From: Candidatus Aenigmatarchaeota archaeon
GTDB taxonomy: Archaea > Aenigmatarchaeota > Aenigmatarchaeia > QMZP01 > QMZT01
DNA length: 64,000 nt
NCBI GenBank assembly: GCA_043808015.1
Contig: JAZDFI010000029.1
Location: forward strand, 7,003-71,002
Direction of reading: 5' to 3'
The stretch's first letter is position 1. Each line of letters starts with the position of its first letter. Shown in pieces: positions 8,918 through 58,917 of the stretch. The position numbers and the translations under genes were made by a program. The notes under the pieces were generated by a model. It saw only the letters and a list, made by a program, of their open reading frames with translations, was not told the origin of the DNA and ran no database searches.

Positions 8918-8953
8918 CTTGATATTTATTTTGACTGTTTTAAATATAAAGGT

Positions 8954-20823: not shown

Positions 20824-20830
20824 GGTATTT

Positions 20831-22597
20831 ATGATCAAGGTCGGAGTCACGACTGGTTTGTATTACATTGCCAGGGCGGAAGAGCTAGCAACGTCGCTGA
20901 AAAAGATAGGTTATGCCCTGTCGAAAGGTGCGAACTCCATCGAGATATCGGGCGACACTCCGCACGAGATAGATTATACGATAGGACAGGAGATACGCGA
21001 CCTCGCCTTCAAGCAGGGCATCGACCTGTGTTTTCACGGCTCGCTAACCACGCCTTTCGAAATCCCCGAGCGCTCCGACTGGAGGGACGCGCAGGAGCAC
21101 GTCGAGAAGTCGATACGTTCCGCCGTTTTTTCCGGCTCGAAATACGTCCTGTTCCACGCCTGCCTGCACTTCTGGCTGGAGATGATAACGTTCACGTCAT
21201 CGAAGCTCGAAATAGTCATGTGCGACCACGCGGGACGCATCATATCCGACATACTGAAGGATGATGAGCGCCTCAGGAACTGGTTTTCCGTCAAGATGTG
21301 GGAATACGAAAGGCAGTATCCTCACCTGATTCTGAGGGAAGAGGACCGTTACGAAGCGGCTCTCAGGGCGCAGGAAGAAATGAGGATATGGTCGGAAAAG
21401 GAAAATGAAAGAAGGCTTGGCGAGGAAATCAAAAAGAACCCTCCAAAAAACGAAATGGAATTAATGAAAATGCAGGCTCATGTAAGAGAGGGTGTAGCAA
21501 AGGAATTGAGCATCGTGCAGTCAAAAAAACAAAAAGAATACGAAACGGAAATGGTAAAAAAACGAATGGCGAACAACAATCCCGACGAGAGAAGATGGAA
21601 AGTCGAGACTTACGGCAAGATGACCGACTGTTATGAAATAATAGCGCATCATATGTTCTACAGAAAAGACCCGTTATGGGTGGCCATGGCCGAAGTTTAC
21701 AAGGATGTGCTTGCACCTTATAACCTGGATTATAATGACGACTGGGCGCTTGACAAGGCTTGGAGAAAAGCGCAGGACAGTAACGACCGCCAGTTCAAGG
21801 AGTTCTGGTATGCAGCTATGGGCGCGAAGTTCCTTGAAGGCCACATGAAATCGGCCCTGGAATATCTGAACGGCAAGCTGCTGACTTTTCTCAAGCAGTT
21901 CCCGGATTCCGCAAAGCTGATAGAAAATGCCAAAAAACTGAAAATAACGATAGAGATGCCGGACGCCAGAGACCCCAGATACGCCGGGCAATACATATTG
22001 TGGCATCCCAAGCAGATTTATGCCGCCATAAAAACCATAAGAAAAACGCTCAATACCGACAGGATTTTCATGACCATCGACTGGGAGCACATAGCCGGTC
22101 AGGGAGTCGACCCGCTGATAGAGATCGGCAATCTTAAGCGATTGGCGCCGGACTTCGGCAAATACGTGCTTTCCGTCCATTCCAATGCTCCAAACCCGCT
22201 GCATGCCCATTACCCCATAGAGCTGGGCGACACCGAGGTTTACAAACTAAACTATTTTTTGCGCAGCACGGGCTTCGGCAAGCAGCCTGGATACGACGTG
22301 TATCTCTGGTTCGAGCGCGGCGGCGGCGACGACCCGTTCCGCCAGTCAGTCGATACGCTCAAGCTATGCGCCAAATTTCTCGAGCAGGACGTGCATCCGG
22401 ACAATCTGCCCCAGGAATATTTCGGCATAAAACTGACTGGCATGGACTTCTGGAGGCAGGAAAACATAATGAGGGACCACAGGTTCGAGCCGCTCAAGGA
22501 CCTGCTGGAAATGCCCGAAGAGGAATGGGGTATGCTCTCCTCGGTAGCGATGAGAAAGGGTAAGACAAAGGAATTCAAGAAGGAAGAACTGAAGTAG
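20831..22597 (+). CDS. Hypothetical 588-aa protein with split xylose-isomerase-like TIM-barrel signature and a coiled-coil insertion
   Basis: N-terminal GVTTGLYY...HGSLT...FHACLHFW and C-terminal DRIFMTIDWEHIAGQGVD...LSVHSNAPNPLHAHYP resemble metal-binding motifs of sugar-phosphate isomerase / AP-endonuclease-2-like TIM barrels. A charged helical insert of about 150 aa separates them. Confidence 0.5.
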   Translation: MIKVGVTTGLYYIARAEELATSLKKIGYALSKGANSIEISGDTPHEIDYTIGQEIRDLAFKQGIDLCFHGSLTTPFEIPERSDWRDAQEHVEKSIRSAVFSGSKYVLFHACLHFWLEMITFTSSKLEIVMCDHAGRIISDILKDDERLRNWFSVKMWEYERQYPHLILREEDRYEAALRAQEEMRIWSEKENERRLGEEIKKNPPKNEMELMKMQAHVREGVAKELSIVQSKKQKEYETEMVKKRMANNNPDERRWKVETYGKMTDCYEIIAHHMFYRKDPLWVAMAEVYKDVLAPYNLDYNDDWALDKAWRKAQDSNDRQFKEFWYAAMGAKFLEGHMKSALEYLNGKLLTFLKQFPDSAKLIENAKKLKITIEMPDARDPRYAGQYILWHPKQIYAAIKTIRKTLNTDRIFMTIDWEHIAGQGVDPLIEIGNLKRLAPDFGKYVLSVHSNAPNPLHAHYPIELGDTEVYKLNYFLRSTGFGKQPGYDVYLWFERGGGDDPFRQSVDTLKLCAKFLEQDVHPDNLPQEYFGIKLTGMDFWRQENIMRDHRFEPLKDLLEMPEEEWGMLSSVAMRKGKTKEFKKEELK

Positions 22598-29861: not shown

Positions 29862-30173
29862 CTACTTTTTCAGGACCAGATGTTCCGGCCTGGATATTAC
29901 TTCTTTCAGGCTGTTGCCTATCTTTATCTGCACCACGTAAGCATCGCCTCGCCTCGCCTTTATCACTCCGGTCAGGCCCTTGAACTTGGGAAAGGGCATG
30001 CCCTTGTGCGACGATGGATTTGGTTTAAGCGTCACCCTGTCGTGTACCTTGAATTCCGTAAGGTATGGGGTGACCTTGAATTTGTGCCTGAGCGTCGCCT
30101 TCAGCTTCCTTCTTGTGGCTCTCCTGAATCCCATTGTAGCTCTTACCATATTATCATCCTTTTTTGATGCCAA
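29862..30173 (-). CDS. rpl21e: 50S ribosomal protein L21e
   Basis: HKGMPFPKFKG...RRGDAYVVQI matches L21e signature residues. Confidence 0.85.
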   Translation of the reverse strand: MASKKDDNMVRATMGFRRATRRKLKATLRHKFKVTPYLTEFKVHDRVTLKPNPSSHKGMPFPKFKGLTGVIKARRGDAYVVQIKIGNSLKEVISRPEHLVLKK

Positions 30174-31314
30174 TCAGGTCGAATTCCTTCATACGCGCCT
30201 GGTTTTCAAGAACCTGCGATATTGAAGGTTTCGTCCTGCCGCCGTCGCCGGTTACGAGTTCCTGCAGGTATAAGCCGGACTCCGCGGTTATATCAAATTG
30301 GTATCTTTTAGTATTAATCCTTTTCCATTTTATGCTTTTAACCTTTTTATGCTTTGTTTTGTCGGGTTTTGCCCCCAGAATTCTGCTGGGCGTCCGCTGT
30401 TTTATGGCGCCTACTATGCCTTTGAGGCGCTCCGGTTTTTCCACGGGTGCCTCGAAATCCACCACGACCCTGTAGACCTTGAATGGGTTCTGGGCCTTGA
30501 GCTCGGCCACTTTTTTCCTGGAGGAAAGGCGAAGCCTAGCGACCTTGACTTTAGCGCTTTTGTTTATGGCGCTCTCCATCTTTCGCAGCAGCAAGCTTCT
30601 TTTGAGCGGCTGCTTCAGCTCCACGATGAACGGCCTCCATGCCAGGCATCTGGCATCCCTGTCCTCCCTGCCTTGCGCGTGCAGTACATGGCTCGTCGCT
30701 AGCGACGCCTTCATGAGCGGCCGGGCTATGATATCCTCTACCGAATCCTTGAACTGCCTCGAACTCGTCTGCGGGAGGCCGCGGAAGAGCTTTTTGTATT
30801 CACCATAGATAAATAGCGGGTTGTAAAAAATCTCAGCCGACATTTTATGCACGTCGAACGTTATGATTATGTCCGGACGCTCGTTATCCTGTTTCTTGCC
30901 GGTTTTCTGCGCTATTATTTTTCCAAGTTCTCTCGCGATTTCGGCTTTCAGCGGCTCGCAGTATTTTATGCCGATTTTCCCCCACAACGCTTCTTCTTTC
31001 ATGACGAGCGAATCGCTCATCCTGACGCCTATCATGAAAGTCGAAAAACCGGCAGGCTTAATCTTATTGGCGATGCTCGCAGCCGCCGCCGCTATTCCGG
31101 CTATTGCATTTTCGCACAACGGGCACGAGGCATCTTTATGGGCGGGCTGTGCACGCCCGTCTTTGGTCAGCATGGCGCGTATCTTACTGCCTCTCTCGCT
31201 ATTGTCCGCCGCCCTGATGACCCCGGCGAACTGCCTGCCGAGGCATGAGTCGCACACGTCACCCGTCTCAAAAATTCTCAGCACTAGCGACGTTATCTCT
31301 TTGACATTTTTCAT
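30154..31314 (-). CDS. pus10: tRNA pseudouridine synthase Pus10
   Basis: N-terminal zinc ribbon CDSCLGRQFA...CPLCEN, THUMP-like region and catalytic domain. Conserved next to L21e. Confidence 0.65.
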   Translation of the reverse strand: MKNVKEITSLVLRIFETGDVCDSCLGRQFAGVIRAADNSERGSKIRAMLTKDGRAQPAHKDASCPLCENAIAGIAAAAASIANKIKPAGFSTFMIGVRMSDSLVMKEEALWGKIGIKYCEPLKAEIARELGKIIAQKTGKKQDNERPDIIITFDVHKMSAEIFYNPLFIYGEYKKLFRGLPQTSSRQFKDSVEDIIARPLMKASLATSHVLHAQGREDRDARCLAWRPFIVELKQPLKRSLLLRKMESAINKSAKVKVARLRLSSRKKVAELKAQNPFKVYRVVVDFEAPVEKPERLKGIVGAIKQRTPSRILGAKPDKTKHKKVKSIKWKRINTKRYQFDITAESGLYLQELVTGDGGRTKPSISQVLENQARMKEFDLIGIKKG

Positions 31315-31338: not shown

Positions 31339-32091
31339 TTAAGCTATTTTAAGGCCGAAAACCCTGACCGCGTTTTCCTTGGCGGCGCGCAGGACGCTCT
31401 CGGTGGTATCGCCGCGCAATTCGGCTATCTTGGCAGCGGAAAGCTTTATGTTCCACGGGTAGTTGCGCGGATCCTGCTCCTTGTTCGGAGAAAGGAACGG
31501 TGAGTCGGTCTCAAGAAGCAGCCTGTCGAGAGGTATATAGCTAGCGATTTTGCGTATGTTTTTTGAGAAAAGCACCATAGTGGAAACGGATACATAAAAC
31601 CCGCGCTCCGTTATTTCTTTCGCCAGCTCTCTGGGCCCGGAAAAGCAATGGAAAACCGCTTCGACGCCCGCGTCTTTGACCATTTCGAAACACTCGCTTT
31701 CCGCGTCCCACGAGTGTATGACCAGCGGCTTTCCGAGGGTTTTAGCAAGCTTTATAAAAAGCGAAAATATCTCCGCCTGTTTCGCCTGTTTGGATGCGTC
31801 TTTTTCCCAGTGGTGGTCAAGGCCAACCTCGCCGACGCCGACAATCCTGTCTGCGTTTTCCTTTATCAGATGCATTATTTTTTCAGGGTCGCCACCCTCG
31901 GTTGGATGGTAACCGAGCGTCGGAAATATGAAGCCTTGGTTTTTTCTGGACAGCTCCAGGGCTTTCACGCCTTCATCGTATCTGGCCGTCCCTACTATGA
32001 CTGCTGCCAGTTCGCTACGACATCTCGCTAGCGTTTCATGCATGTCCTTATCGTAATCCCCGAAACACAAATGAGCATGCACGTCGATCAT
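31339..32091 (-). CDS. tatD: TatD-family metal-dependent hydrolase
   Basis: MIDVHAHL N-terminus and distributed His/Asp/Glu motifs of the TatD TIM-barrel. Confidence 0.8.
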   Translation of the reverse strand: MIDVHAHLCFGDYDKDMHETLARCRSELAAVIVGTARYDEGVKALELSRKNQGFIFPTLGYHPTEGGDPEKIMHLIKENADRIVGVGEVGLDHHWEKDASKQAKQAEIFSLFIKLAKTLGKPLVIHSWDAESECFEMVKDAGVEAVFHCFSGPRELAKEITERGFYVSVSTMVLFSKNIRKIASYIPLDRLLLETDSPFLSPNKEQDPRNYPWNIKLSAAKIAELRGDTTESVLRAAKENAVRVFGLKIA

Positions 32092-32861
32092 GCGTTATCT
32101 CCCCCGAAAAAATAAACCAGCGCCTCTTCTATGCTTTTAACTTCCTTTATTTCAATGCCGGTTTCCTTGGCTATATCGACGCTGACCGGCACGTTATCCG
32201 TGGTGCACACGGGCGCGGGACCTGCCTGATCGCAGTATTTTCTGGTATCATAAATTATTTCGGTGCTCTGGCCGCTTGGCACGAGAAACGTGCTCATGCC
32301 GGCTTCCTTTGCAGCCTTTGCCTTGGCCAGCACGTGACTTACATGCCCTATTGTGCCATCCTCGTTTATTGTCCCGGTTATCACGATACGCGCGTCAATT
32401 TCCTTTCCCGTCAGCGAAGCTACCGTGACTATCGCTAGCGCAGCGCCTGCCGACGGACCTTCTACCGACGTCGATTCTGTCTCAATATTGTATATTATAT
32501 CATATTTTGAAAGGTTCATGCCAGTTATGTTCGAGGCGACTTTGCTTGAAACACGTATGGAGTTCTGTGTGTCGGTCCAGAAAAGCATTTTGTCTATGTT
32601 GGCCAGAACCCTCCCATCGCCTTCGCTGGTCTGGACCGTGAGTTTCGCTAACATGCCAAAGCCATCGTCGTCCACTGCGGGGATGAGTATTGACGCTGAT
32701 GCATTGTGGCTTTCGTTTAATGATGTGTAAGGCATGTAATTCATAACTCCAACTAGGTAACCAGTCATGAATATCGCGGCCGCGGAGAATATTATCGCGC
32801 ATGTTCCGGCCTTGTTGCGGGGCTTCTTTTTTTTCACGGCGTCCTTCCTGTATTTATGCAT
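32088..32861 (-). CDS. Membrane-anchored Lon-like S16 peptidase domain protein
   Basis: Ser-Lys dyad context GPSAGAALAIV...KAKAAKEAG. N-terminal TM anchor. Start trimmed to MHKYRK so that it does not overlap the SRP RNA. Confidence 0.65.
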   Translation of the reverse strand: MHKYRKDAVKKKKPRNKAGTCAIIFSAAAIFMTGYLVGVMNYMPYTSLNESHNASASILIPAVDDDGFGMLAKLTVQTSEGDGRVLANIDKMLFWTDTQNSIRVSSKVASNITGMNLSKYDIIYNIETESTSVEGPSAGAALAIVTVASLTGKEIDARIVITGTINEDGTIGHVSHVLAKAKAAKEAGMSTFLVPSGQSTEIIYDTRKYCDQAGPAPVCTTDNVPVSVDIAKETGIEIKEVKSIEEALVYFFGGDNA

Positions 32862-32885
32862 AAAACCACGAGAGCGCTGCGGGTC

Positions 32886-32901
32886 TATATATTTAAATAC
32901 G
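32886..32901 (+). promoter_or_regulatory. TATA/BRE-like element upstream of the SRP RNA
   Basis: TATATATTTAAATAC about 20-30 nt upstream of the predicted RNA 5' end. Confidence 0.4.
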
Positions 32902-32917
32902 GCCTCTCGGATTATTA

Positions 32918-33203
32918 ATGCAGGGGCCTCCAACCATGGGGCTAGGCCTACCGTACCTTCGGGTGGCAAACGGTCTTCACGGCCGGTTGTAGTTTGCGGA
33001 TGGTTTTGCGCTGAGCTGCAAAGCCCAGACTGCCAACGTAGAAGCCTTGTCCTGCAGGATCATCTTCATGGCGAACCGGGTCAGGGTCGGAAGACAGCAG
33101 CTCTAAGTCATGTCGGCGGTGCTTGCAGGGTAGCAGGGTGGAGAAGGCAATCAGGTTAACTTTCGGTTTTGTGCAAAGTCTACCGCAAACATGTCCCTGC
33201 ATT
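32918..33203 (+). ncRNA. ffs: Signal recognition particle RNA (7S/SRP RNA)
   Basis: 284-bp ORF-free gap. Contains GGGUCAGGGUCGGAAGACAGCAGC (33078-33101), closely matching the conserved SRP RNA helix-8 motif GUCAGGUCCGGAAGGAAGCAGC. The terminal complementarity (5' GCAGGG ... 3' CCCUGC) closes the molecule. Ends approximate. Confidence 0.55.
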
Positions 33204-37848: not shown

Positions 37849-38508
37849 ATGACAGGCAGAAAAGGTCTGAAAATCGATTTTCATGTCCATTCACATTTCT
37901 CTTCCGATGGCGACATGACGCCGGAAGAAATAATAAGATATGCCAAGAAAGCCGGGCTGGACGCGATAGCCGTTACGGATCATAACAGCCTGCGCGGAGG
38001 CAAGGAAGTGGAGAAGCTTTCAAAAGATCTTATTGTTCTCGTCGGTTCTGAGATAAAAACCGATGCCGGGGAAATCATAGCTCTCAATATAAAAAAGGAT
38101 ATAGAACGTGACCTGGGGCTCGAGGAAACGTGCAAGCTGGTCAAAGAGCAGGGCGGTTTCATAATAATTTCACATCCATTCGACAGGTTCAGAAGCGGTA
38201 TAGGAAGCGAGGCTGAAAAAATAGTAAAATACATAGACGCGGTCGAGGTTTTCAACGCGAGGACTATGGTCGGAAAATTCAACGACGATGCGCTCGCTTT
38301 CGCCAGGAAGCACAACCTGCCATGCGTCGCTGGTTCCGATTCCCACTTCGCCTCAGAACTGGGTTCTGCCTACACTCTGGTCATGGCCGAAAATAAAAAA
38401 GACATATTCAAGGCCATACGTCAGGGCAGGACTGAAATAGCAGGCAGGAAAACAGGCATAATGCCACACTGGAGAACCTTCATCAAGAACATGAACAGAA
38501 AATTATAA
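37849..38508 (+). CDS. PHP-domain metal-dependent phosphoesterase
   Basis: KIDFHVHSHFSSDG...AIAVTDHN His-rich PHP motifs. Confidence 0.75.
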   Translation: MTGRKGLKIDFHVHSHFSSDGDMTPEEIIRYAKKAGLDAIAVTDHNSLRGGKEVEKLSKDLIVLVGSEIKTDAGEIIALNIKKDIERDLGLEETCKLVKEQGGFIIISHPFDRFRSGIGSEAEKIVKYIDAVEVFNARTMVGKFNDDALAFARKHNLPCVAGSDSHFASELGSAYTLVMAENKKDIFKAIRQGRTEIAGRKTGIMPHWRTFIKNMNRKL

Positions 38509-39534
38509 TCACTTGTTCACTGTCGCATTTGTGATATTCCCTATTCCGGTTTCTATTTCTGACTGTATGTCGTCGATTGTTTTGTATTTGCCAAGGCCGC
38601 CAGTCAGGTTGTCCACAGGCTTCATGATATTTTCAGGTATTTCATTCGCCACAATCTCCTTGTAGTTGTCTATGGTGTCGGCAATTCTCTCGTTCGCCTG
38701 GCCGACGAACGGCACCATGAGAACGAGAAATGAAATTATCACCACCGGGAGAAGCAGGTATTCTATCACTATCATGTTGTTTATCTTGTGAAACTCGATG
38801 TCTATTTTTTTCATGAGCAGAAGTATTGAAAGGGGAATGACTATCAGCAGTATCATGCTCAGCGGGAAGCCGTACTGCAGCAGTGAAACCACGTAAGAGA
38901 ATGCGCCCAGAAGGCCGATCGCCACGAACATCTTTTTGTTGCCCTTTATGATGCTGCCCTTGAACTTGAATTTGTATATGAGGTAACTGGCCATGTAAAC
39001 CAGGGAAAACGCCATTATTATCCAGAAGGGGAATTTTGAAATGTCGGACGTGAGGGCGAACCATCCGCACGAATATTTTAGGAACTCTATGACCGTCATG
39101 TTGACCGCTGTCTTGCGCAGGCTTTTCTTGAAGCGCGCGCGCGGCGACGAGTGCAGCAGGTTGAGAAAAAGCATGGCAGTTATCATCAGGAAAAACCACT
39201 TGCTTATGAAAAACGACATACCCATTCCGACTACGATGAAAGTGGCAAGTATTATTTTGGCCTGCTTGAGGTTGATCATGTCCCCTGCCACGAGCTTCCA
39301 TTTCCTCTTCTCGGCGTCTTTCCTGTCTTCGTCGTGGTCGACGATGTCGTTGTAAACATATACAGCCGAATAGGATATCAGGAAGGCCGCCAAAGACGCG
39401 AGCGTCAGAAAGATATCCGGAACTCCCAGCAAAAACCAGAACAGTATTATTCCAAGAAGGAACTGGACCATGTTCTTGGGGAGGCTTATGGTTATGCTGT
39501 TGAAAAGGATTTTCTTTATTTTCATAAGCATCAC
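38509..39534 (-). CDS. UbiA-family prenyltransferase (membrane)
   Basis: NDIVDHDEDR (NDxxDxxxD) Asp-rich motif in a polytopic membrane protein. Start uncertain. Confidence 0.55.
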   Translation of the reverse strand: MMLMKIKKILFNSITISLPKNMVQFLLGIILFWFLLGVPDIFLTLASLAAFLISYSAVYVYNDIVDHDEDRKDAEKRKWKLVAGDMINLKQAKIILATFIVVGMGMSFFISKWFFLMITAMLFLNLLHSSPRARFKKSLRKTAVNMTVIEFLKYSCGWFALTSDISKFPFWIIMAFSLVYMASYLIYKFKFKGSIIKGNKKMFVAIGLLGAFSYVVSLLQYGFPLSMILLIVIPLSILLLMKKIDIEFHKINNMIVIEYLLLPVVIISFLVLMVPFVGQANERIADTIDNYKEIVANEIPENIMKPVDNLTGGLGKYKTIDDIQSEIETGIGNITNATVNK

Positions 39535-39543
39535 ATATAGATT

Positions 39544-40308
39544 TCAGGCCGGCTCCTTTTTATGCATTTCCCGCACCTTTCGTGCGCGGAATATTATGGT
39601 TGAGGCAAAGGTTGTTTTCCTGGCGAACGCGGAGTCGACGGCATTCCATAGTCTTTCCTGCCATTTTTTGCGCGAGCCGTCCGCCATCACCGGAGTACCT
39701 TTTATCTTTTCAATAGAGAAGCCATGCATCTCCAGCAGCTCTTTAAGAGAACGCTTTGTGAAGGCGTGTATGTGGCCTACGCCCTCCTTTATGAAAGGGT
39801 TGCCAGTGTACGTTTTCAGGGACGACTCTATCCACGTCGGCATGAAACCCAGGAAAAGGAAGCCGCGGTTATACCATGAGGCTATGTTCGGCACGGAAAT
39901 GACCAGGCAACCATTCGTCTTAAGCGAACGGTTTATGTTGGTGAGAAGGTTCTCGGTATCATAAATATGCTCTATCACGTCACCGCAGAAAACGGCATCG
40001 AAGCTGTTTTTTTCGAACGGAAATTCCTTGTCTATGTTGGCGGTCTTGGCGTCTATCCCTTTTTTTCCGGCCTCGGCCACGGCATCCGCGCTTATGTCTA
40101 TGCCATAAACCTTCGCCCCGGTTTCCTTGGATATGATCGCAGAAATGAAGCCGTCACCACAACCCACGTCCAGGATTTTTCCGTTCTTCTGGCCGCTGAA
40201 AAACTCCAGGACTACTTTTATTTTTTTCTCCTGTATTTTGTAGTATTTTCCGGATTCCTTGGCGAAAATATTGGAGTAGAAATTCTTGTTGTATTCGTTT
40301 GTGTCCAT
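39544..40308 (-). CDS. Class I SAM-dependent methyltransferase
   Basis: ILDVGCGDG motif I, plus DAVFCGDVIEH. Confidence 0.8.
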   Translation of the reverse strand: MDTNEYNKNFYSNIFAKESGKYYKIQEKKIKVVLEFFSGQKNGKILDVGCGDGFISAIISKETGAKVYGIDISADAVAEAGKKGIDAKTANIDKEFPFEKNSFDAVFCGDVIEHIYDTENLLTNINRSLKTNGCLVISVPNIASWYNRGFLFLGFMPTWIESSLKTYTGNPFIKEGVGHIHAFTKRSLKELLEMHGFSIEKIKGTPVMADGSRKKWQERLWNAVDSAFARKTTFASTIIFRARKVREMHKKEPA

Positions 40309-40369
40309 GGTAAAGGATTGTGGCCTCCAGTTATAAAAACGTATAAAAACGGAACGTCATTATAATTGT

Positions 40370-41878
40370 ATGGATTTGGTGAAAGCGCTGGAATCGCTGA
40401 GTCCCATTGAAAGGAGCGTGCTGCCGCACATCAAAGACGGCATGGAGCTCCGTGCAATAGCAAGGGACGCTAAATTGCAGGAAATAGAAGTCATGCGCGC
40501 CATCCAGTGGCTCGAAAACAAGGGCATGATAAAAGTTTCATCTTCCGCAAAAGACGTCGTTGTCGTTGGAAGCAACGGAAAGCTTTACATGAAAACCGGC
40601 TTACCTGAAAAGCGGTTTCTGGAGGCGCTTTCAGGAAAAATGAGCATTGATGACATCAAAAAGGTGACCAAGCTCGACGACAATGAAATAAGGATATGCC
40701 TTGGTCTGCTGAAAGCCAGATACGCGATTTCCATAATTGGTAATGTAATAGAACCGACCAGCGAGTGTGAGCGCATACTAAAAGAGGGTTTTGCGGAAGA
40801 AGCATTTCTCAAAAGCCTGCCGAAAAACTTCGATGGGCTGAGCGATGACGAAAAGATGCTTTTCGCCAGGCTTGCTAAAAGAAGGGACATCGTCCTGAAA
40901 GAAACGGCGAAACTGAGATTCGTGGAACTCACTGAGCTCGGCAAAAAACTTGCTGCCGGCTCAAAAAAAATAAAGATGGACCTCATAGAGTCGCTAACGC
41001 CGCAGATGCTCAGGGAAAAAACATGGAGCGGCAAGAAGTTCAGGAGATATGACATAAAGACAGGTGTGCCGAAAATAAACCCGGGCAAGAGGCAGCCGTA
41101 CAGCGAATTCCTGCAGGACGTGCGAGAACGACTGGTGTCGCTCGGATTCGAGGAAATGCACGGGCCTGTAATAGAGACTGAATTTTTCAATTTTGATGCG
41201 CTTTACCAGCCGCAGAACCACCCGGCAAGGGACTGGAGCGCCACTTACAGAATCAGGGAACCGAAATACGGCGACCTGCCTGAAAAAAGCATAGTTGCGT
41301 CAGTCAAAAAGGCCCATGAAAGGGGTATCGGTGGCTCTAGCGGATGGGGTTATAAGTGGGACAGCAAAATCGCGGCCCGTCTGATGCCAAGGGCGCATGA
41401 TACTGCCATATCACCCAGGTTTCTTGAGAAGGGTGTCAAGATACCAGGCAAATATTTCAGCCTCGTCCGCTGTTACAGGCCGGATGTCATCGACGCGACC
41501 CATGGCGTCGAATTCAGCCAGCTTGGCGGTTTTGTCATAGGCAATGATCTTAATTTCAGGCATCTGCTCGGCCTGCTGAAACAATTCGTATTCGAAATAA
41601 CTGGCATAGAAGACGTGCGCTTCTCGCCGGACTATTTTCCTTTCACGGAACCTTCGGTCCAGATTGCCGCAAAACACCCGAAGCTTGGCTGGATGGAGCT
41701 TGCCGGGGCTGGTATTTTCAGGCCGGAACTCACTCTGCCCATGGGTGTCAAAGAGCCGGTAATAGCGTGGGGCTTCGGCATAGACAGGCTTGCCATGATA
41801 AAGCTCGGTATAAAGGACATACGCGACATATTTTCGAATGATATAGAATTCTTGAGGAAAGCCGGAAAGGTGTTTTGA
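40370..41878 (+). CDS. pheS: Phenylalanyl-tRNA synthetase alpha subunit
   Basis: N-terminal wHTH repeats and C-terminal class II catalytic core (HPARD...FRPE...GFGIDRL). Confidence 0.9.
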   Translation: MDLVKALESLSPIERSVLPHIKDGMELRAIARDAKLQEIEVMRAIQWLENKGMIKVSSSAKDVVVVGSNGKLYMKTGLPEKRFLEALSGKMSIDDIKKVTKLDDNEIRICLGLLKARYAISIIGNVIEPTSECERILKEGFAEEAFLKSLPKNFDGLSDDEKMLFARLAKRRDIVLKETAKLRFVELTELGKKLAAGSKKIKMDLIESLTPQMLREKTWSGKKFRRYDIKTGVPKINPGKRQPYSEFLQDVRERLVSLGFEEMHGPVIETEFFNFDALYQPQNHPARDWSATYRIREPKYGDLPEKSIVASVKKAHERGIGGSSGWGYKWDSKIAARLMPRAHDTAISPRFLEKGVKIPGKYFSLVRCYRPDVIDATHGVEFSQLGGFVIGNDLNFRHLLGLLKQFVFEITGIEDVRFSPDYFPFTEPSVQIAAKHPKLGWMELAGAGIFRPELTLPMGVKEPVIAWGFGIDRLAMIKLGIKDIRDIFSNDIEFLRKAGKVF

Positions 41879-43551
41879 TGCCAACGATAGAAATTTCGCT
41901 TAAGGACATGAGCAGGCTGGTGCGCAAGAAATTATCATTGACGGAGCTAGCGACTGCGCTGCAATACGTAAAAGGCGAAATCGAATCTTCGGACGGCGAC
42001 AGGTTGAAAATAGAGATAGCTGACAGCAACAGGCCTGACCTCTGGTCTGCCGAGGGCATAGCCAGGGAGTTGCGGTCGAGGTACGTCAATGAAAGGGGTC
42101 TCGCTAAATTCAAAACCAAAAAGTCAGGCCTCAAGGTAATAGTCGAAAAGAGCCTCAGAAACATAAGGCCGAGAACCGTCTGTGCGGTTGTCCGCGGTCT
42201 TCGCATAGATGATGAAACGCTTTTCCAGATGATTCAGCTGCAGGAAAAAATATGCGAGAATTTCGGCAGGAGAAGAAAGGAAGTGGCGCTGGGAATATAC
42301 GACTACAGCAGGATTTCACCGCCAATTTATTTCAGGGCGTACGGCCCGGAAGATATAAAATTCGTACCGCTCGACTTCAATGTGGATATGAGCCTCAAGG
42401 CCATACTTGCAGAGCATCCGAAAGGTAAGGAATACGCGCATCTTCTCGCCGGTATGAAAAAATATCCTATCTTCATAGATTCGATGGACCACGTGCTTTC
42501 CATGCCGCCGGTCATAAACTCCGACTTCAGCGGCAAGGTCACGAAGGCGACGAAAGACGTGTTCATCGAATGCTCGGGATTCAGCATGAAATTCCTCCTG
42601 CCCGCACTCAACATAATGGTCGCGGCCCTCGCCGACAGGGGCGGGCGCGTCGAGACTGTCGATGTCGTTTTCCCGGACGGCAAAATGCAGACGCCGGATT
42701 TCACCTCGAAAAAAATACTGGTAAATCCTGATAGAGCAAGGCATATTTCAGGTTTGCATTTAACCGATGCCGATATTGCAAAGCTTCTGATGAAAGCAAG
42801 ATACGGCGTGAAAAAAGAGCGTGGCGCGCTGGCCGTTCTCGTCCCGTCATACAGGCAGGACGTGATGCACGAAGTTGATGTGATAGAAGACATGATTATA
42901 TCATACAGTTACAATAAAATAGAGCCCATCACGCCTTCCCTGGCCAGCACCGGAAAGCTGACGCCGGTTAATAATTTCGTTAAAAAAATAACCGAGCTTA
43001 TGGTCGGCCTCGGCAACCAGGAAGTCCTTTCATACACTCTTACCAACAGGGAGAACATGATAAAGAAGATGAACCTCGAAGGTATGAAAATCATAGAAAT
43101 AAACAATCCGGTTTCAAAAAACTGGAGCGTTTTCAGGACATGGATAACACCTTCGCTAATCGAATTCATGTCGAACAACACCAACAAGGAATACCCCCAG
43201 CGCGTGTTCGAAATAGGCGAGGTCGTCGTTTACGACGCCAAAGCGGAAACCAGAAGCAATAATCCCGTGATGCTCGCGCTGGCCTGCGCCGGGTCTGACG
43301 CCAACTTTACACTGGCCAGGCAGCAATTGGACTTCGTGCTGAGAACGATAGGCATTGAATACGTTGTAGAGGAAACCGAGCACTGTTCCTTCATAACAGG
43401 AAGGGTTGGAATCGTTTATGCTAAAGGCCGGGAAATCGCATGCCTGGGGGAAATACACCCCAAAGTCCTTTCTAATTTTGGCATAGAACAGCCGGTATGC
43501 ACTTTCGAAATGAACCTTAGCGAAATTCTCGCGCTGGTCGAAAAAAAATAA
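41875..43551 (+). CDS. pheT: Phenylalanyl-tRNA synthetase beta subunit
   Basis: Overlaps the pheS stop (ATGA). B3/B4 and B5 domain pattern. 558 aa as in archaeal PheT. Confidence 0.9.
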   Translation: MMPTIEISLKDMSRLVRKKLSLTELATALQYVKGEIESSDGDRLKIEIADSNRPDLWSAEGIARELRSRYVNERGLAKFKTKKSGLKVIVEKSLRNIRPRTVCAVVRGLRIDDETLFQMIQLQEKICENFGRRRKEVALGIYDYSRISPPIYFRAYGPEDIKFVPLDFNVDMSLKAILAEHPKGKEYAHLLAGMKKYPIFIDSMDHVLSMPPVINSDFSGKVTKATKDVFIECSGFSMKFLLPALNIMVAALADRGGRVETVDVVFPDGKMQTPDFTSKKILVNPDRARHISGLHLTDADIAKLLMKARYGVKKERGALAVLVPSYRQDVMHEVDVIEDMIISYSYNKIEPITPSLASTGKLTPVNNFVKKITELMVGLGNQEVLSYTLTNRENMIKKMNLEGMKIIEINNPVSKNWSVFRTWITPSLIEFMSNNTNKEYPQRVFEIGEVVVYDAKAETRSNNPVMLALACAGSDANFTLARQQLDFVLRTIGIEYVVEETEHCSFITGRVGIVYAKGREIACLGEIHPKVLSNFGIEQPVCTFEMNLSEILALVEKK

Positions 43552-44316
43552 TCATCTGCCATGAAGCCAGTTGAAAAGCCTGTAGCTTAACTGTATTTTC
43601 GGTGTGTAAGTTTCTCCGATGAGGCTGGCCGCTATGGCCCTTATGTGCTGCGCGGCTGGGGAACGCGGATTGTAAACGACAACCGGCTCTTTCATGGCAA
43701 TCGCCTTTCGCACTTCTCTGTCCTCCGGCACTGTACCTATTATGGGAAGGCCTATCATCCTCTCTATGTGTTCTGCCGGGAGCTCGTGCGTTTCGTTTTT
43801 CACCCTGTTGAGAATTATGCCGAGGTTGTGTGTTGAACACTTGTTTGACATCATGGTAAGCTTGAAGGCGTCCGTGACTGCCGGGAGCTCCGGATTTGTA
43901 ACTGTCAATAGCTCGTCGGCCGCTTCCATGGCCGCCACGGATTCCTTGCCCAGTCCGGCTGGCGTGTCGATGAGTATGAAATCATGGCCTTCGAGCAGCT
44001 TGTAAAGCACATCGATATAATGATGGGATTTTATATTCTTTGTTTTTCTCATGGATATGTCCGCAGGTATGACCTTGAAGCCGGTTTTATGTGTGTAAAG
44101 AACGTCGCTGACCTTTGCCCTGCCTTCAAAAACGTCATGTATTGTTTTGGGGTACAAATGCATGCCGAGATGCAGTGCCAGATTCGACGTCGTCAGGTTG
44201 GCGTCGATGGCCACTACCGATTTGCCATATTGTGCCAAAGCCGCGGCGAGATTCGCGACGAGCGTCGTTTTGCCCACCCCGCCTTTACCAGAAGAAATTG
44301 CTATTATGCGTGTCAT
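43552..44316 (-). CDS. minD: MinD/ParA-family P-loop ATPase
   Basis: Deviant Walker A SGKGGVGKTT. 254 aa. Confidence 0.8.
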   Translation of the reverse strand: MTRIIAISSGKGGVGKTTLVANLAAALAQYGKSVVAIDANLTTSNLALHLGMHLYPKTIHDVFEGRAKVSDVLYTHKTGFKVIPADISMRKTKNIKSHHYIDVLYKLLEGHDFILIDTPAGLGKESVAAMEAADELLTVTNPELPAVTDAFKLTMMSNKCSTHNLGIILNRVKNETHELPAEHIERMIGLPIIGTVPEDREVRKAIAMKEPVVVYNPRSPAAQHIRAIAASLIGETYTPKIQLSYRLFNWLHGR

Positions 44317-44369
44317 GCTATAGTCTTGTCTTCAAAAAGTTATAAAACTATCCTGTCAGAAACGCGGAG

Positions 44370-44476
44370 CGGACCTGGGGGGATTTTCGCTTAAGCCTTT
44401 TAGTTAAAAGACTTGTTTCGAACCCCCGACCTTTAGCTTAGGAGGCTACTGCTCTATCCAACTGAGCTACAGGCCC
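44370..44476 (-). tRNA. tRNA-Arg (anticodon CCU) carrying a 33-nt intron in the T-loop (between positions 59 and 60)
   Basis: Reverse complement reads GGGCCUG-UA-GCUC-AGUUGGAUA-GAGC-A-GUAGC-CUCCUAA-GCUAA-AGGUC-GGGGG-UUCGAA[33 nt]U-CCCCC-CAGGUCC-G. Cloverleaf stems pair: acceptor 7 bp including G3.U70, D 4 bp, anticodon 4 bp plus one G.A, T 5 bp. Insert ACAAGUCUUUUAACUAAAAGGCUUAAGCGAAAA can itself fold into a hairpin. No CCA encoded. Confidence 0.6.
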
Positions 44477-44496
44477 GTCGCTAGCGCTGTTTAATG

Positions 44497-46041
44497 TTAT
44501 AGTTTGAACAGGTTTTTAAAGAAGTTTATCACGCCATCGAGCGCCGAAGAGAACCAGTCATCATTCGTTTTCGAGATTATTTTTCCGGTGGGTATGTTTA
44601 TTGATTCATCATTTTGTGCGTCGTTTTTTGAGCCATTTTTATCCAGAACATTTTTTGTATTCCCGTCATCCTTTGCCTGTCCCGTGTTATTAAGAAAATA
44701 ATTTTTCAGTGCGACGCCGTCATTGTTTGTATTTCTTGCGTTCGTTACGCCGGTTGCATTGCACGTTGTCTTGTTTTCACACTTGCAAGCCTGACACGGC
44801 GGGCAGGAGCATGGCTTGGATGTTTCGATTGTTTTTGTTTTGCATAAAGAAGTTGCTTGGCCTTCTATTTTCAGTTCGCCATAATCCCGCGAATCGAGGC
44901 CTTCGGTCCTGACCGCATAGCTTCCGTTCGCATAATTGCCGTCGCAGTTGGGGTTTATTTGCAGCGGGATTGTAATTGTCTGGTTGGAAAATTTTTCATA
45001 AACGTTAAGGTTCGCCTTTGCTATTTTTGTTCCGGCTGCATTTTCTATCCAGACATCTATTGAACTCTTTGTCGTGTCGCCTTTGTAAACATTGACAACG
45101 ACATCAACCATGTCGCCGAACTTCGCTTTTTTGTCGGAGCCTACGTCGATTTCCAGTATTTTTATTGATGATTCTTTTACCGGTGGTTCGCCGCCGACCA
45201 CGACGATTTTGTCCGCATGGTTGTTGGAAGCGCCGGTGTCGTTGCATCCGAAAACATAAAGATGCGCCATGATGCGATACGCTTCAGTCCCCTTTGTCGC
45301 TGGTGGTGTCCACTCCCTGGAGATGTTTTCATTGCATTCCATGGCCGCAGACGAATTGTGTTTTGCTTTGATGGCCGCGCCGAACAAATCCTCTATCCAG
45401 TATTCTACGACAACGTCTTTTTTCATACACGACGCGTCTTTTAAAACCAAAAAATAGTTCTGTTTTTCACCTGAATTAAAAAATTGCTCTGATGCTATTG
45501 CGATTGATATGTCGCACGCATCCGCAACGGTCTCGTTGGTCTGGTTGTACGGTTCGCCCGCGCACGCGTTTTCGCGGCCGGGGGTCGATACATTCTGCTG
45601 GACTAATGCATCCGCGCAAATACCATAAGAAACATTCGCATCAGACCCCGAGTATATGATACTCTGGAGAGCGACTGAATTTTTGTACAGGGTGATGTTG
45701 CTCCCGGTGTTAGTCAGCCTCAGCGACTTGCCCTCCAGCAGTTTAACGCCTTCTGTATTCCACATCTCGCCAAATACGCTGGCGTTTCTTGTGATTAACA
45801 AATATTCTCCGGCTGAAAGCGAACTGTTGATTATCGTCTGGTATTTTCCAGTCTCCAGCAAGAGGCTCTCCGCTTCGACTGGCTCGCTTATAAAAATTTC
45901 CAGCCATTCGGAGCAGTCGGAGCAGTTATCGGCCGGGTCTGGCATGAATTCGCTCACGAAAATCGCCTGTGAACTTCCTGCTAAAATCAGAAACAACAAC
46001 GACATTATCGATAAAATAAGCAGTTCAGAACCATGCTTCAT
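44497..46041 (-). CDS. Secreted protein with lamin-tail-domain (LTD) motif and Cys-rich C-terminal region
   Basis: Signal peptide, then FVSEFMPDPADNCSDCSEWLEIF (LTD-like N..P..D..EWIEL motif), Asn sequons, and C-terminal CSCPPCQACKC cluster. Confidence 0.55.
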   Translation of the reverse strand: MKHGSELLILSIMSLLFLILAGSSQAIFVSEFMPDPADNCSDCSEWLEIFISEPVEAESLLLETGKYQTIINSSLSAGEYLLITRNASVFGEMWNTEGVKLLEGKSLRLTNTGSNITLYKNSVALQSIIYSGSDANVSYGICADALVQQNVSTPGRENACAGEPYNQTNETVADACDISIAIASEQFFNSGEKQNYFLVLKDASCMKKDVVVEYWIEDLFGAAIKAKHNSSAAMECNENISREWTPPATKGTEAYRIMAHLYVFGCNDTGASNNHADKIVVVGGEPPVKESSIKILEIDVGSDKKAKFGDMVDVVVNVYKGDTTKSSIDVWIENAAGTKIAKANLNVYEKFSNQTITIPLQINPNCDGNYANGSYAVRTEGLDSRDYGELKIEGQATSLCKTKTIETSKPCSCPPCQACKCENKTTCNATGVTNARNTNNDGVALKNYFLNNTGQAKDDGNTKNVLDKNGSKNDAQNDESINIPTGKIISKTNDDWFSSALDGVINFFKNLFKL

Positions 46042-46108
46042 GAAATGATTGTGAAATATATGTTAAAATAGTTATGTTTAAACATATGTTTAAACATTTT
46101 TCAGGTTT

Positions 46109-50496: not shown

Positions 50497-50907
50497 ATGA
50501 AATTCCAGTTTATCAAGGACATGACTTCGGATGTCGTGTTCGAGGCATTTGGAAAGGATAAGAAAGAGCTTTTCGAAAACGCAGGATTTGCCCTGATGAG
50601 CGTCATATGCCAGGTGGATAAAATAGCGCCGCTGCTTTCCAAAGAAGTCGAAGTCTCGGGTGAGAACGAAAAAGACCTGCTGTTCAACTGGCTGCAGAAG
50701 CTCATAGAGATGGTTGACATCGAAAACATTTTCTTCTCCAAATTCGAGATCAAAAAAATCAGCGGCAAACACATGATTGTCAAGTGCTTCGGCGAAGGCT
50801 CCGACCCCGGCAGGGGCGGCACGCTCGTCAAAGCGGTGACTTATTACAAGTTCAACATTGAAAAGACGAAAGACGGTCTCAAAGCGACTGTCAGCCTGGA
50901 TATATGA
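50497..50907 (+). CDS. Archease (RtcB cofactor)
   Basis: 136 aa, FQFIKDMTSDVVFEAFGKD...KVEVSG pattern typical of archease. Convergent with rtcB. Confidence 0.75.
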   Translation: MKFQFIKDMTSDVVFEAFGKDKKELFENAGFALMSVICQVDKIAPLLSKEVEVSGENEKDLLFNWLQKLIEMVDIENIFFSKFEIKKISGKHMIVKCFGEGSDPGRGGTLVKAVTYYKFNIEKTKDGLKATVSLDI

Positions 50908-50911
50908 GTGC

Positions 50912-52324
50912 TTAGCCTTTGCAGACGCCGATCGGCAGCGCCTTTGCGACCTTGAGTGAGATGCCCATTCCATGGACGGATTCTATCACGTCGTCTACGT
51001 TCTTGTAAGCGCCTGGCGCCTCTTCTGCGAGGACTTCTGGGTGCGTTGACTGGGCAACGATGCCCTTCTTCGCGAGGTCGTCCTTGACATTGCCTCCCCA
51101 GAACTTCTTTATCGCGTCGTTCCTTGACATCGCCCTGCCGGCGCCGTGCACGGTCGAGCCGAACGTCTTTTCCAGCGACGCTTCAGCGCCTTTGAGTATG
51201 TAACTCGACGTTCCCATCGTGCCCGCGATGAGCACCGGATCGCCCGGGAAGCTGCGCGTCGACCCCTTCCGATGGACGTACACTTTTCGCTTCTTGCCGT
51301 CTATTTTGTGTTCCTCCACCTTCACTACGTTATGGCAGAGGCCGTAAAGCGTGTGCATGCCCATCGCTTCCCACTCGCGATTGAATACCTTCTCGAACGT
51401 TTCGCGTATCCACTGGGTCATTACCAGACGATTGGTGAAAGAATAGTTCACGGCACATTTCATAGCGGAAAAATAATCCAACGCTTCCGGCGTCTTCGCC
51501 GGCGCGCACGCGAGCTGCCTGTCAGGGAGCCATATTTTGTATTTGTCGACCGCCTTCTCCTGTATTTTCAGGTAATCGGTCGCAACCTGATGGCCGAGCC
51601 CGCGCGAGCCGCAGTGCAGCATTATGAGGACCTGATCCGGACTCTCGATTCCCCATTTGCTGGCGACCGGCGCATCGTAAATTTCCGAGACCTTCTGTAT
51701 TTCCAGAAAATGGTTCCCGGCACCGAGCGTTCCCAGCTGTTCGAGGCCGCGTTTCTTGGCAAGGTCTGAAACCTTTTTCGGGTCGCCGCCTTCCATGCAT
51801 CCCTTTTCTTCCATGTGTTCCCTGTCGCTGGCGACGCCGTAGCCATTTTCGATAGCCCAGTTAACGCCGTGCGTGAGGACCTGCGCGAGCTGATCCTGCG
51901 TCAGCTTCAGCCTTCCATGAGCTCCGACGCCGCATGGTATGGTCTTGAAAAGGGCTGATATGAGTTCGTTGAGCTTCGGCTTCACTTCATCATAAGTGAG
52001 GCTGGTGCGTATGGAATTAACTCCGCAGTTTATGTCGAAGCCGCACAGGCCTGAAGAAATTATACCATCGTCAAAATCGAATGCAGACACCGCGCCCATG
52101 GGAAGACCGTAGCCCCAGTGCATGTCCGGGAGGCCGATAACTGGTTCTATCACACCCGGCAGGCAGGCGACATTGGTGAGCTGTTCGATGGCAGCGTCTT
52201 CGATACCATTTATGATCTGGCTGTTGCCCACGATTTTTGCCTTCACGTTCATCTTGGGCCTGACGTTTTTTTCGAGTTCCCACTCGTAATCTGAAACCTG
52301 TTTCAGCTTGCTTTTCATCGTCAT
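50912..52324 (-). CDS. rtcB: RNA-splicing ligase RtcB
   Basis: 470 aa with conserved His/Cys metal ligands (GFDINCGV, HNVV, GAGNHF, HGAGR). Confidence 0.9.
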   Translation of the reverse strand: MTMKSKLKQVSDYEWELEKNVRPKMNVKAKIVGNSQIINGIEDAAIEQLTNVACLPGVIEPVIGLPDMHWGYGLPMGAVSAFDFDDGIISSGLCGFDINCGVNSIRTSLTYDEVKPKLNELISALFKTIPCGVGAHGRLKLTQDQLAQVLTHGVNWAIENGYGVASDREHMEEKGCMEGGDPKKVSDLAKKRGLEQLGTLGAGNHFLEIQKVSEIYDAPVASKWGIESPDQVLIMLHCGSRGLGHQVATDYLKIQEKAVDKYKIWLPDRQLACAPAKTPEALDYFSAMKCAVNYSFTNRLVMTQWIRETFEKVFNREWEAMGMHTLYGLCHNVVKVEEHKIDGKKRKVYVHRKGSTRSFPGDPVLIAGTMGTSSYILKGAEASLEKTFGSTVHGAGRAMSRNDAIKKFWGGNVKDDLAKKGIVAQSTHPEVLAEEAPGAYKNVDDVIESVHGMGISLKVAKALPIGVCKG

Positions 52325-52426: not shown

Positions 52427-52681
52427 ATGAGCAGTAAACAATTTTACAAAAGAGGATGGCATCACAATAAAGGCAGGGGAAGGGAAACGTCTGTCACATG
52501 CGGTTTCTGCGGAAGGATTGTCCCTAAATACAAAACCTTTGCAGTTTACAGAGGATTTTCCATCACTGATCCTGCACTGAGACAGGAACTCGGCGGGAGA
52601 GGCGGTTCTTTGTTTTCTACCAAATTGTATGCGTGCCCTGGCTGTGCAAGGCACAGACAAATCGTAAAGAAAAAAAGATGA
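52427..52681 (+). CDS. rps26e: 30S ribosomal protein S26e
   Basis: KGRGRETSVTCGFCGRIVPKYK and KLYACPGCARHRQIV match eS26 ([22 protein letters not shown] and KLYVKLHYCVSCAIHSKVV). Confidence 0.7.
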   Translation: MSSKQFYKRGWHHNKGRGRETSVTCGFCGRIVPKYKTFAVYRGFSITDPALRQELGGRGGSLFSTKLYACPGCARHRQIVKKKR

Positions 52682-58368: not shown

Positions 58369-58917
58369 ATGAGATGCTTTATATCAATAGATGTTGATGA
58401 TCGCCTCAAAGAAAGCATTTTGCAGATTCAGAAAAATATTTTAAATTTGGGCGTTGATGTGAAAATGGTAGAACCACAAAACCTCCATTTCACCGTCAAT
58501 TTTTTGGGTGAACTGGATGAAAATAAAATAAGCAACGTGAAGAAGCAACTTGACTACGTGAAGGGTGCATGTGAATTTGAAGTGAATGTCGCGGGTCTGG
58601 GATATTTTGGAAATGAAAATAACATAAGAACGCTTTGGTTGGGCCTGAAAGCTGGTGAACGTGAATTATCTGACTTGATGTCGGATGTAAATGAATGTGT
58701 GAAAATCGGCGAGAAATGCACAAAACCTCATCTTACAATAGGAAGGGTTAGAAGTGGTTCCGGCAGAAAGGATTTGCTCGACTTTATAAAAAATCACTCA
58801 GATGTGAACATAGGTGAAATGAACGTGAAGTGCGTGAAGTTGAAAAGAAGTGATCTTGGCGCCAGTGGGCCGATATACGATGTTTTGTACGATGTTAAGT
58901 TGGTTTCGCATGAATGA
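58369..58917 (+). CDS. ligT: 2'-5' RNA ligase / 2H phosphoesterase (LigT/ThpR)
   Basis: Two H-x-T-x motifs (HFTVNFLG and HLTIGRV) at the right spacing in a 182-aa protein. Confidence 0.75.
   Translation: MRCFISIDVDDRLKESILQIQKNILNLGVDVKMVEPQNLHFTVNFLGELDENKISNVKKQLDYVKGACEFEVNVAGLGYFGNENNIRTLWLGLKAGERELSDLMSDVNECVKIGEKCTKPHLTIGRVRSGSGRKDLLDFIKNHSDVNIGEMNVKCVKLKRSDLGASGPIYDVLYDVKLVSHE

Follow-up and report, generated by a model that had tools for sequence, protein, structure and literature searches.

A 59/60 T-loop intron and a G3·U70 acceptor pair in a tRNA-Arg(CCU) gene of a Candidatus Aenigmatarchaeota archaeon

The DNA analysed here, called the window below, is a stretch of 64,000 nucleotides from contig JAZDFI010000029.1 of a Candidatus Aenigmatarchaeota archaeon. 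It contains on its minus strand a complete gene for the arginine transfer RNA (tRNA) with anticodon CCU (44370..44476, 107 nt, CCA not encoded), in which a 33-nt insert separates A59 from U60 of the T-loop and a G3·U70 pair is present in the acceptor stem. We consider it very probable that this is a functional single-locus tRNA-Arg(CCU) gene with an endonuclease-type intron at position 59/60, and that its product is charged with arginine and tolerates G3·U70.

Structure and detection of the gene

The gene is composed of a 5' exon of 60 nt (GGGCCTGTAGCTCAGTTGGATAGAGCAGTAGCCTCCTAAGCTAAAGGTCGGGGGTTCGAA, 44476..44417, tRNA positions 1-59 plus 20a), an intron of 33 nt (ACAAGTCTTTTAACTAAAAGGCTTAAGCGAAAA, 44416..44384) and a 3' exon of 14 nt (TCCCCCCAGGTCCG, 44383..44370, U60-G73), all on the minus strand. 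The anticodon is read as CCT at 44442..44440, G3 and U70 are found at 44474 and 44373, A20 at 44457 and the discriminator base G73 at 44370. An earlier note on this DNA, made from the letters only, had proposed that a cloverleaf requires removal of the 33-nt insert, and our searches agree with it. ARAGORN found zero tRNAs in the raw window and likewise zero around the gene when its intron options (-i, -i0,100 and -io) were switched on; these cover anticodon-loop introns only. Once the insert had been removed, the same program returned tRNA-Arg(cct) as a full cloverleaf with G3 and U70, the acceptor stem GGGCCUG/CAGGUCC, the D-loop AGUUGGAUA containing A20, the T-loop UUCGAAU and the discriminator G73. 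The unspliced gene scores 30.4 bits against the Rfam tRNA model (threshold 29), with a mis-assigned 3' half and a match that depends on the 5' acceptor strand pairing with intron sequence. Intronless syntenic orthologs at four related loci (L003, L023, L119 and L130) reach 68.9-71.5 bits on this covariance model, which upholds both the gene and its boundaries. The lowest of these values belongs to L003, a 1.1-Mb contig in which an intronless tRNA-Arg(CCU) gene occupies the same intergenic spot (PheRS-beta, a MinD-like gene, then the tRNA, with a PheRS-beta identity of 63% to that of the window) and is one D-loop base away from the predicted spliced product.

Cutting at 57/58, at 58/59 or at 59/60 leaves an identical product sequence, because runs of A flank both junctions; the bulge-helix-bulge (BHB) geometry described below therefore served to choose 59/60 among the three, and this is the junction of the UUCGAAU loop at which the insert had originally been placed. 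No further tRNA-like match was found in the whole window (Rfam scan at E<=1), and ARAGORN reported tRNA-Arg(CCU) genes and no other tRNA on 11 related loci.

The failure of ARAGORN and Rfam to recognise the unspliced gene properly could be taken to mean that it is a decaying pseudogene, the insert then being the scar of an insertion and AGG being decoded by tRNA-Arg(UCU) or by a copy elsewhere in the genome; moreover, the view is limited to 64 kb of the genome, so that other tRNA-Arg genes may exist. However, removal of the insert restores a perfect cloverleaf exactly, the splice motif is retained in six diverged introns, and the locus is the sole tRNA-Arg(CCU) at a conserved syntenic site in all relatives. 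Across the six closest lineages the exons vary only at position 3 and at the D-loop base 20a, whereas the flanking DNA is 69-91% identical. Exons that stay nearly invariant while introns and flanks diverge indicate a gene under purifying selection, and we therefore regard the pseudogene explanation as very improbable. The practical consequence is that standard tRNA finders miss this gene (no hit with ARAGORN, a borderline hit with a wrong 3' end with Rfam), so that genomes of this lineage appear to be without a tRNA for their commonest arginine codon.

In the anticodon stem, the top pair is a G27·A43 mismatch (44450 and 44434) that is kept in the closest relatives; the more distant orthologs L023, L119, L134 and L136 have a Watson-Crick C27-G43 pair instead.

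Splice motif and proposed processing

In the BHB motif a helix of 4 bp is flanked at each end by a 3-nt bulge, the two bulges being on opposite strands, and each strand is cut after the second nucleotide of its bulge; the rule was applied in this form. The lowest-energy fold of the precursor has -39.3 kcal/mol (z-score -4.0 against shuffles), and its outer helix is the 5-bp T-stem (49-53/61-65). Stacked on the T-stem is a 4-bp central helix, in which U54, U55, C56 and G57 (44419..44422, minus strand) pair with CGAA, nucleotides 28-31 of the intron (44386..44389, minus strand); all 4 of the 4 pairs form, with pair probabilities of 0.65-0.99. Where the central helix meets the T-stem, the 3' splice site lies in a clean 3-nt bulge, A-A/U60 (44383..44385, minus strand). 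The 5' splice site (A58-A59/A, the last being intron nucleotide 1; 44416..44418, minus strand) has its predicted cleavage after A59 and falls within a 4x3 internal loop in the lowest-energy fold, with A58-A59-A-C unpaired opposite A-A-G. In a strict BHB form the 5' bulge would be closed by a single C-G pair; this form is 3.9 kcal/mol less favourable than the lowest-energy fold, and the pair has a probability of 0.003. The remainder of the intron folds into an inner hairpin of 9 bp with an AACU loop (44393..44414, minus strand), in line with the suggestion that the insert can form a hairpin.

Of 2000 shuffled versions of the insert with unchanged composition, 15 reproduced the T-stem, the 4-bp helix and the 3-nt bulge together. 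Since the motif is also kept in the diverged introns of five relatives, it is no chance feature. A BHB-like fold is present at the 59/60 junction. The earlier idea of a relaxed BHB holds for the 5' site, which is loosened to the 4x3 loop; the outer helix has 5 bp, and the central helix and the 3' bulge are perfect, so that the relaxation is mild. The fold predicts a near-canonical motif whose mild relaxation is confined to the 5' site.

We propose that the T-stem would act as outer helix in the precursor and the pairing of U54-G57 with intron nucleotides 28-31 as central helix, placing the splice sites two nucleotides into A58-A59-A and A-A-U60. The splicing endonuclease EndA would then cut both sites, RtcB and archease would join the exons, and CCA would be added. 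Modification of the T-loop, for example by Pus10, would be possible only after splicing. A Pus10 gene (THUMP and Pus10_C domains) is located at 30154-31314 on the minus strand of the window; its product is presumably the archaeal enzyme for pseudouridine 54/55 in the T-loop. These target positions are base-paired in the intron-containing precursor, and modification should therefore follow splicing.

The UUCGAA of the T-loop is palindromic, so that the 3' end of the intron (CGAA, then AA/U) resembles a direct repeat of the T-loop (44417-44422 and 44384-44389), and the T-loop intron of L136 contains two additional copies of GGTTCGA. A local duplication of the T-loop would be enough to create the central helix, and may explain why 59/60 is a hot spot for introns.

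A box C/D guide RNA within the intron was considered and rejected, as no C/D box motifs were visible by eye and the insert has only 33 nt.

Orthologs and intron turnover

The comparison set comprised the window and 13 further lineages (designated by locus, L001 to L137), obtained from exon-pattern scans, in which the matches listed were used, and from synteny look-ups. The Aenigmatarchaeota genomes among the exon-pattern matches listed are JAPLVC010000005, JAZGEG010000070 and JAGGYQ010000041. Positions 38077..46064 of the window correspond over 8 kb, with 90.6% identity, to the metagenome-assembled genome (MAG) 'Candidatus Aenigmatarchaeota archaeon LacPavin_0920_SED3_MAG_50_31' (JAPLVC010000005), so that the window derives from a close relative of this MAG; the PheRS beta subunit encoded in the window is nearest to proteins labelled Aenigmarchaeota or DPANN. 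The relatives share the order of genes around the tRNA: PheRS-alpha, PheRS-beta, MinD-like ATPase, tRNA, a surface protein, a CBS protein or both, then PPDK, pilins, archease, RtcB and an eS26-like protein. As MAFFT misplaced the 3' exons when intron-bearing and intronless genes were aligned together, base pairs were counted by a scripted positional BHB check.

Introns at 59/60 were found in five relatives, with lengths of 33 nt (L030), 48 nt (L001), 59 nt (L127), 66 nt (L125) and 91 nt (L136). Together with that of the window, these six T-loop introns (33-91 nt) form all four pairs of the central helix, with a change of U55-A to U55·G in L001 and L127. All six have the 3-nt 3' bulge as well (AAU in five, AUU in L136), and they have diverged in length and sequence outside the motif. 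The introns of the window and of L030 (90.6% DNA identity between the two) differ at three positions, two of which keep the pairing of the hairpin (A-U to G·U, U·G to U-A) while the third lies in the loop.

A second type of intron, of 31-40 nt, is inserted in the D-loop between A20 and U20a (position 20/20a) in L133 (5437-5664), L134 (5684-5919), L135 (5439-5674), L136 (5435-5792) and L137 (5465-5778), the genes being on the minus strand of each locus. In each of them G15-G18 forms a helix with C[G/A][A/G]C in which 4 of 4 pairs are kept with one-sided changes, and the inner helix displays two-sided compensatory changes. The spliced forms of these D-loop-intron genes were all identified as tRNA-Arg(cct) by ARAGORN. 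L136 has both introns (the D-loop intron and the 91-nt 59/60 intron), and L003, L023, L119 and L130 have none. One orthologous locus therefore exists in four architectures: no intron, 59/60, D-loop 20/20a, or both.

Introns at the same site occur in independent assemblies, namely L030 (an NCBI MAG), L001 and L002 (ENA, JGI) and L125, L127 and L136 (JGI). This bears on the idea, considered only because the DNA is that of an uncultured organism, that the insert arose as an error of assembly or sequencing, or that it is a group I/II self-splicing intron or a fragment of a mobile element. In addition, 33 nt is far below the size needed by group I/II introns, no second copy of the insert was found within the window, and no match to archaeal viral contigs was obtained, so that an origin of any of these three kinds seems extremely improbable to us. 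The viral-contig scan matched bacterial phage tRNAs only, which leaves a virus attachment site at this tRNA without support.

On a tree of MinD proteins, which is weakly resolved, both intron types are scattered, and this scatter implies that introns at the tRNA-Arg(CCU) locus were lost repeatedly and probably also gained repeatedly. In this view the intron of the window is one state of a fast-turning-over gene structure. Four architectures in fairly close relatives make a compact natural series for the study of gain, loss and resizing of introns at hot spots; the series also predicts a splicing endonuclease of broad specificity in Aenigmatarchaeota. Many DPANN alpha4 endonucleases bear an extra 'L3' loop, a feature linked to a larger number of disrupted tRNA genes (PMC5829648).

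Arginine identity and the G3·U70 pair

The G3·U70 pair had been singled out in the earlier note as an alanine identity element in a tRNA with an arginine anticodon, to be explained by AlaRS discrimination or by mis-annotation of the anticodon. The pair is indeed present, and the second explanation can be dismissed. The arginine identity set, as established for E. coli and yeast, comprises A20, C35, U36 and G73 or A73. The tRNA has A20, the anticodon CCU (with C35) and G73, in agreement with this set. AGG is the commonest arginine codon in 37 genes of the window (38% of the arginine codons, 20 per 1000 codons). In PheRS-beta, 8 of the 17 AGG codons are at positions that are arginine in 99-100% of 93 homologs (<=58% identity) and none of the 17 is at a position dominated by alanine. 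AGG being both the commonest arginine codon and the codon used at invariant arginines, the tRNA is arginine-specific.

Over the 14 lineages, the 3:70 pair is G·U in six (the window, L030, L125, L003, L023 and L136), A-U in seven (L001, L127, L119, L133, L134, L135 and L137) and G-C in one (L130), and G73 is invariant in 14 of 14 orthologs. The state of the pair differs within close pairs of lineages (window and L001, L125 and L127, L136 and L134), and the states are scattered on the MinD tree. Among the matches listed, which are mostly bacterial, G3·U70 was found in 2 of 92 distinct intronless tRNA-Arg(CCU) genes, both from Aenigmatarchaeota. G3·U70 is thus recurrent in the clade and is neither an isolated oddity nor an error.

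The most economical reading is that position 3:70 drifts nearly neutrally between A-U, G·U and G-C, and that AlaRS would not productively charge this tRNA. The G·U pair would then be a tolerated state of a drifting pair, arginine charging would proceed through A20, C35 and G73, and AlaRS presumably rejects tRNA-Arg(CCU) or loses the competition for it. Three features of tRNA-Ala are missing from the molecule, which has G73 instead of A73, C-G at 4:69 and the anticodon CCU; of these, G73 and C4-G69 are visible candidate antideterminants against AlaRS.

Several points weigh against a spliced, arginine-charged tRNA that tolerates G3·U70. On the splicing side, the 5' site in the lowest-energy fold of the free RNA is the 4x3 internal loop and not a clean 3-nt bulge, and homotetrameric endonucleases without accessory loops were reported to require strict motifs (Fujishima et al. 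2011, PMC3239211). No EndA domain was revealed when about 60 open reading frames (ORFs) of the window were scanned with Pfam; the splicing itself we infer from sequence, and with a poorly resolved MinD tree the counts of intron gains and losses and of 3:70 changes are approximate. On the charging side, ArgRS is not known to have an editing domain. The acceptor stem contains G1-C72, G2-C71 and G3·U70, which is exactly the conserved acceptor end of tRNA-Ala: G1-C72, G2-C71 and A73 are conserved in all tRNA-Ala (PMC9976931), and G4-C69 in that of bacteria. Furthermore, the addition of G3·U70 suffices for AlaRS to charge non-alanine tRNAs (PMC7954030), and the alpha+beta holo-AlaRS of N. equitans, a member of DPANN, is G3:U70-specific (PMC11392972). 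Given this specificity of AlaRS for G3·U70, the rejection of tRNA-Arg(CCU) is not self-evident.

The same three charging results would also suit a tRNA of dual identity, of which AlaRS charges a fraction with alanine, the resulting low-level replacement of arginine by alanine at AGG being tolerated or removed by trans-editing. The persistence of G·U in 6 of 14 lineages and the restriction of G3·U70 to two Aenigmatarchaeota genes among the 92 listed intronless ones are also compatible with it. However, AGG is the most used arginine codon and occupies invariant arginine positions, so that appreciable alanylation would carry a high cost; G·U and A-U alternate freely in close relatives, which resembles neutral drift and not a selected trait; and G73 (not A73) and C4-G69 are unlike tRNA-Ala. 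We judge dual identity unlikely and keep to a tRNA charged with arginine, in which G·U is tolerated.

A wider possibility, which we hold to be rather unlikely too, is that either the identity rules of AlaRS have shifted in Aenigmatarchaeota (for instance to a strict need for A73 or to elements beyond 3:70) or some AGG codons are read as alanine, which is tolerated or corrected. If this were true, Aenigmatarchaeota would offer an example from nature, in prokaryotes, of a non-alanine tRNA bearing the 'universal' alanine determinant, with A3 and G3 sister lineages as built-in controls. A G3·U70 tRNA-Arg beside sister lineages with A3-U70 raises the question of what, beyond G·U, lets an archaeal AlaRS recognise alanine tRNA. 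The single unusual feature here is that an arginine tRNA in heavy use has a recurring G3·U70, and there is a modest chance that this reflects altered AlaRS rules or tolerated mistranslation.

Comparison with known systems

A canonical intron at 37/38 lies in an anticodon arm with a 5-bp stem and a 7-nt loop, where it separates the sixth loop nucleotide from the seventh; loop nucleotides 1-4 pair with the 3' part of the intron to give the 4-bp helix. The intron described here has the same geometry shifted to the T-arm, including the predicted cut after the second nucleotide of each bulge. It differs from the canonical type by its location and by the weak helix inside the 5' bulge, which results in an internal loop at the 5' site in the free RNA.

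The supposition that non-canonical intron positions are known in some archaeal lineages is borne out by ARMAN-2 (Ca. Micrarchaeum acidiphilum), in which the 59/60 site is documented (PMC3239211). In that organism pre-tRNA-Cys(GCA) and pre-tRNA-Pro(GGG) have 59/60 introns: that of pre-tRNA-Cys has 13 nt, belongs to the relaxed hBH type and is cleaved in vitro by the cognate endonuclease, and pre-tRNA-Pro is interrupted at 53/54 and again at 59/60, the second of these introns having a strict motif (PMC3239211). The intron sites of ARMAN-2 overlap the major insertion sites of other archaea (PMC3239211). The two systems share their membership of DPANN, the T-loop site at 59/60, the T-stem as outer helix and a motif of BHB type. 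They differ in phylum (Micrarchaeota versus Aenigmatarchaeota), in the tRNAs concerned (Cys and Pro versus Arg CCU) and in intron length (13 nt versus 33 nt); also, ARMAN-2 has a three-unit epsilon2 endonuclease and cleavage in vitro, whereas cleavage of the Aenigmatarchaeota intron is predicted.

In Thermoproteales and other Crenarchaeota, non-canonical and multiple introns likewise occur, in D- and T-loops among other places and with relaxed motifs; they are gained and lost rapidly, and their presence and position vary among close relatives (PMC3239211, PMC5829648). Those lineages possess (alpha-beta)2 endonucleases with a Crenarchaea-specific loop, whereas the turnover described here concerns a single orthologous locus of a DPANN phylum. 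Thermoproteales are known for near-identical introns that transpose from gene to gene; this was not seen here, where one gene was examined.

In our literature searches no description of tRNA introns in Aenigmatarchaeota was found. The intron is ordinary for DPANN and TACK archaea and new for Aenigmatarchaeota, the comparative data support it well, and the series of four architectures at one locus is a useful extension and not categorically new.

For the acceptor stem, the nearest parallel is vertebrate tRNA-Thr with G4:U69, also a natural and conserved non-alanine tRNA with a G·U pair of AlaRS type (PMC7337962, PMC5802732). This tRNA is mischarged by eukaryotic AlaRS only and is rescued by ThrRS cross-editing or by ATD (PMC7337962, PMC5802732). 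The vertebrate pair is at 4:69, whereas the archaeal tRNA-Arg(CCU) has an authentic 3:70 pair and is the substrate of a synthetase, ArgRS, that is not known to edit.

Splicing enzymes and neighbouring genes

RtcB and archease, which had been placed about 6 kb from the tRNA gene, were both identified by Pfam. The RNA 3'-phosphate ligase RtcB (PF01139, E=3.7e-154) is encoded at 50912..52324 on the minus strand and its cofactor archease (PF01951, E=8.1e-31) at 50497..50907 on the plus strand, the two genes being convergent. Both are general archaeal genes. Their arrangement is identical in L003, whose tRNA-Arg(CCU) has no intron, so that their proximity points to no specific link with the intron and is regarded as coincidental. 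The Pfam scans of about 60 ORFs of the window showed no AlaRS gene.

A further RNA-end-processing enzyme in the window is a LigT-like 2H phosphoesterase of the 2'-5' RNA ligase family (58369-58917, plus strand; PF02834, E=1.5e-19). Next to rtcB, an 84-aa protein with two CxxC motifs (52427-52681, plus strand) is weakly similar to ribosomal protein S26e (E=2.9e-5, under the Pfam cut-off), and this S26e-like protein adjoins rtcB in L001 and L003 as well.

Large ORFs of 1348, 577, 588 and 514 aa without Pfam match are present at 8651-12697 (plus strand), 19090-22597 (plus strand) and 44497-46041 (minus strand). The 514-aa ORF, next to the tRNA, has a signal-peptide-like N-terminus and is rich in Cys and Asn. 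It is missing in L001, and other relatives have variable proteins of 492-611 aa, three of them with LTD domains, so that the place beside the tRNA looks like a slot for fast-evolving surface proteins. An element, TTTAAAAACCTGTT[C/A]AAACTATAA, is conserved 10-30 nt upstream of the tRNA (44477-44530 in the window, 12640-12690 in L001) and may contain a TATA-like promoter of the tRNA. It also encodes the last codons, FFKNL[F/L]KL and stop, of the ORF upstream, which is the 514-aa secreted protein in the window and a CBS-domain protein in L001.

In an otherwise housekeeping region, a 131-aa protein (2285-2680, plus strand) matches 'putative phage metallopeptidase' (PF18894, E=5.5e-23). Finally, the archaeal signal recognition particle (SRP) RNA was located at 32920-33200 on the plus strand (RF01857, 100.9 bits). 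Two ORFs listed on the minus strand overlap it, one at the 5' end of the RNA (32088-32969) and one of 84 aa (32948-33202), and they are probably over-extended or spurious.

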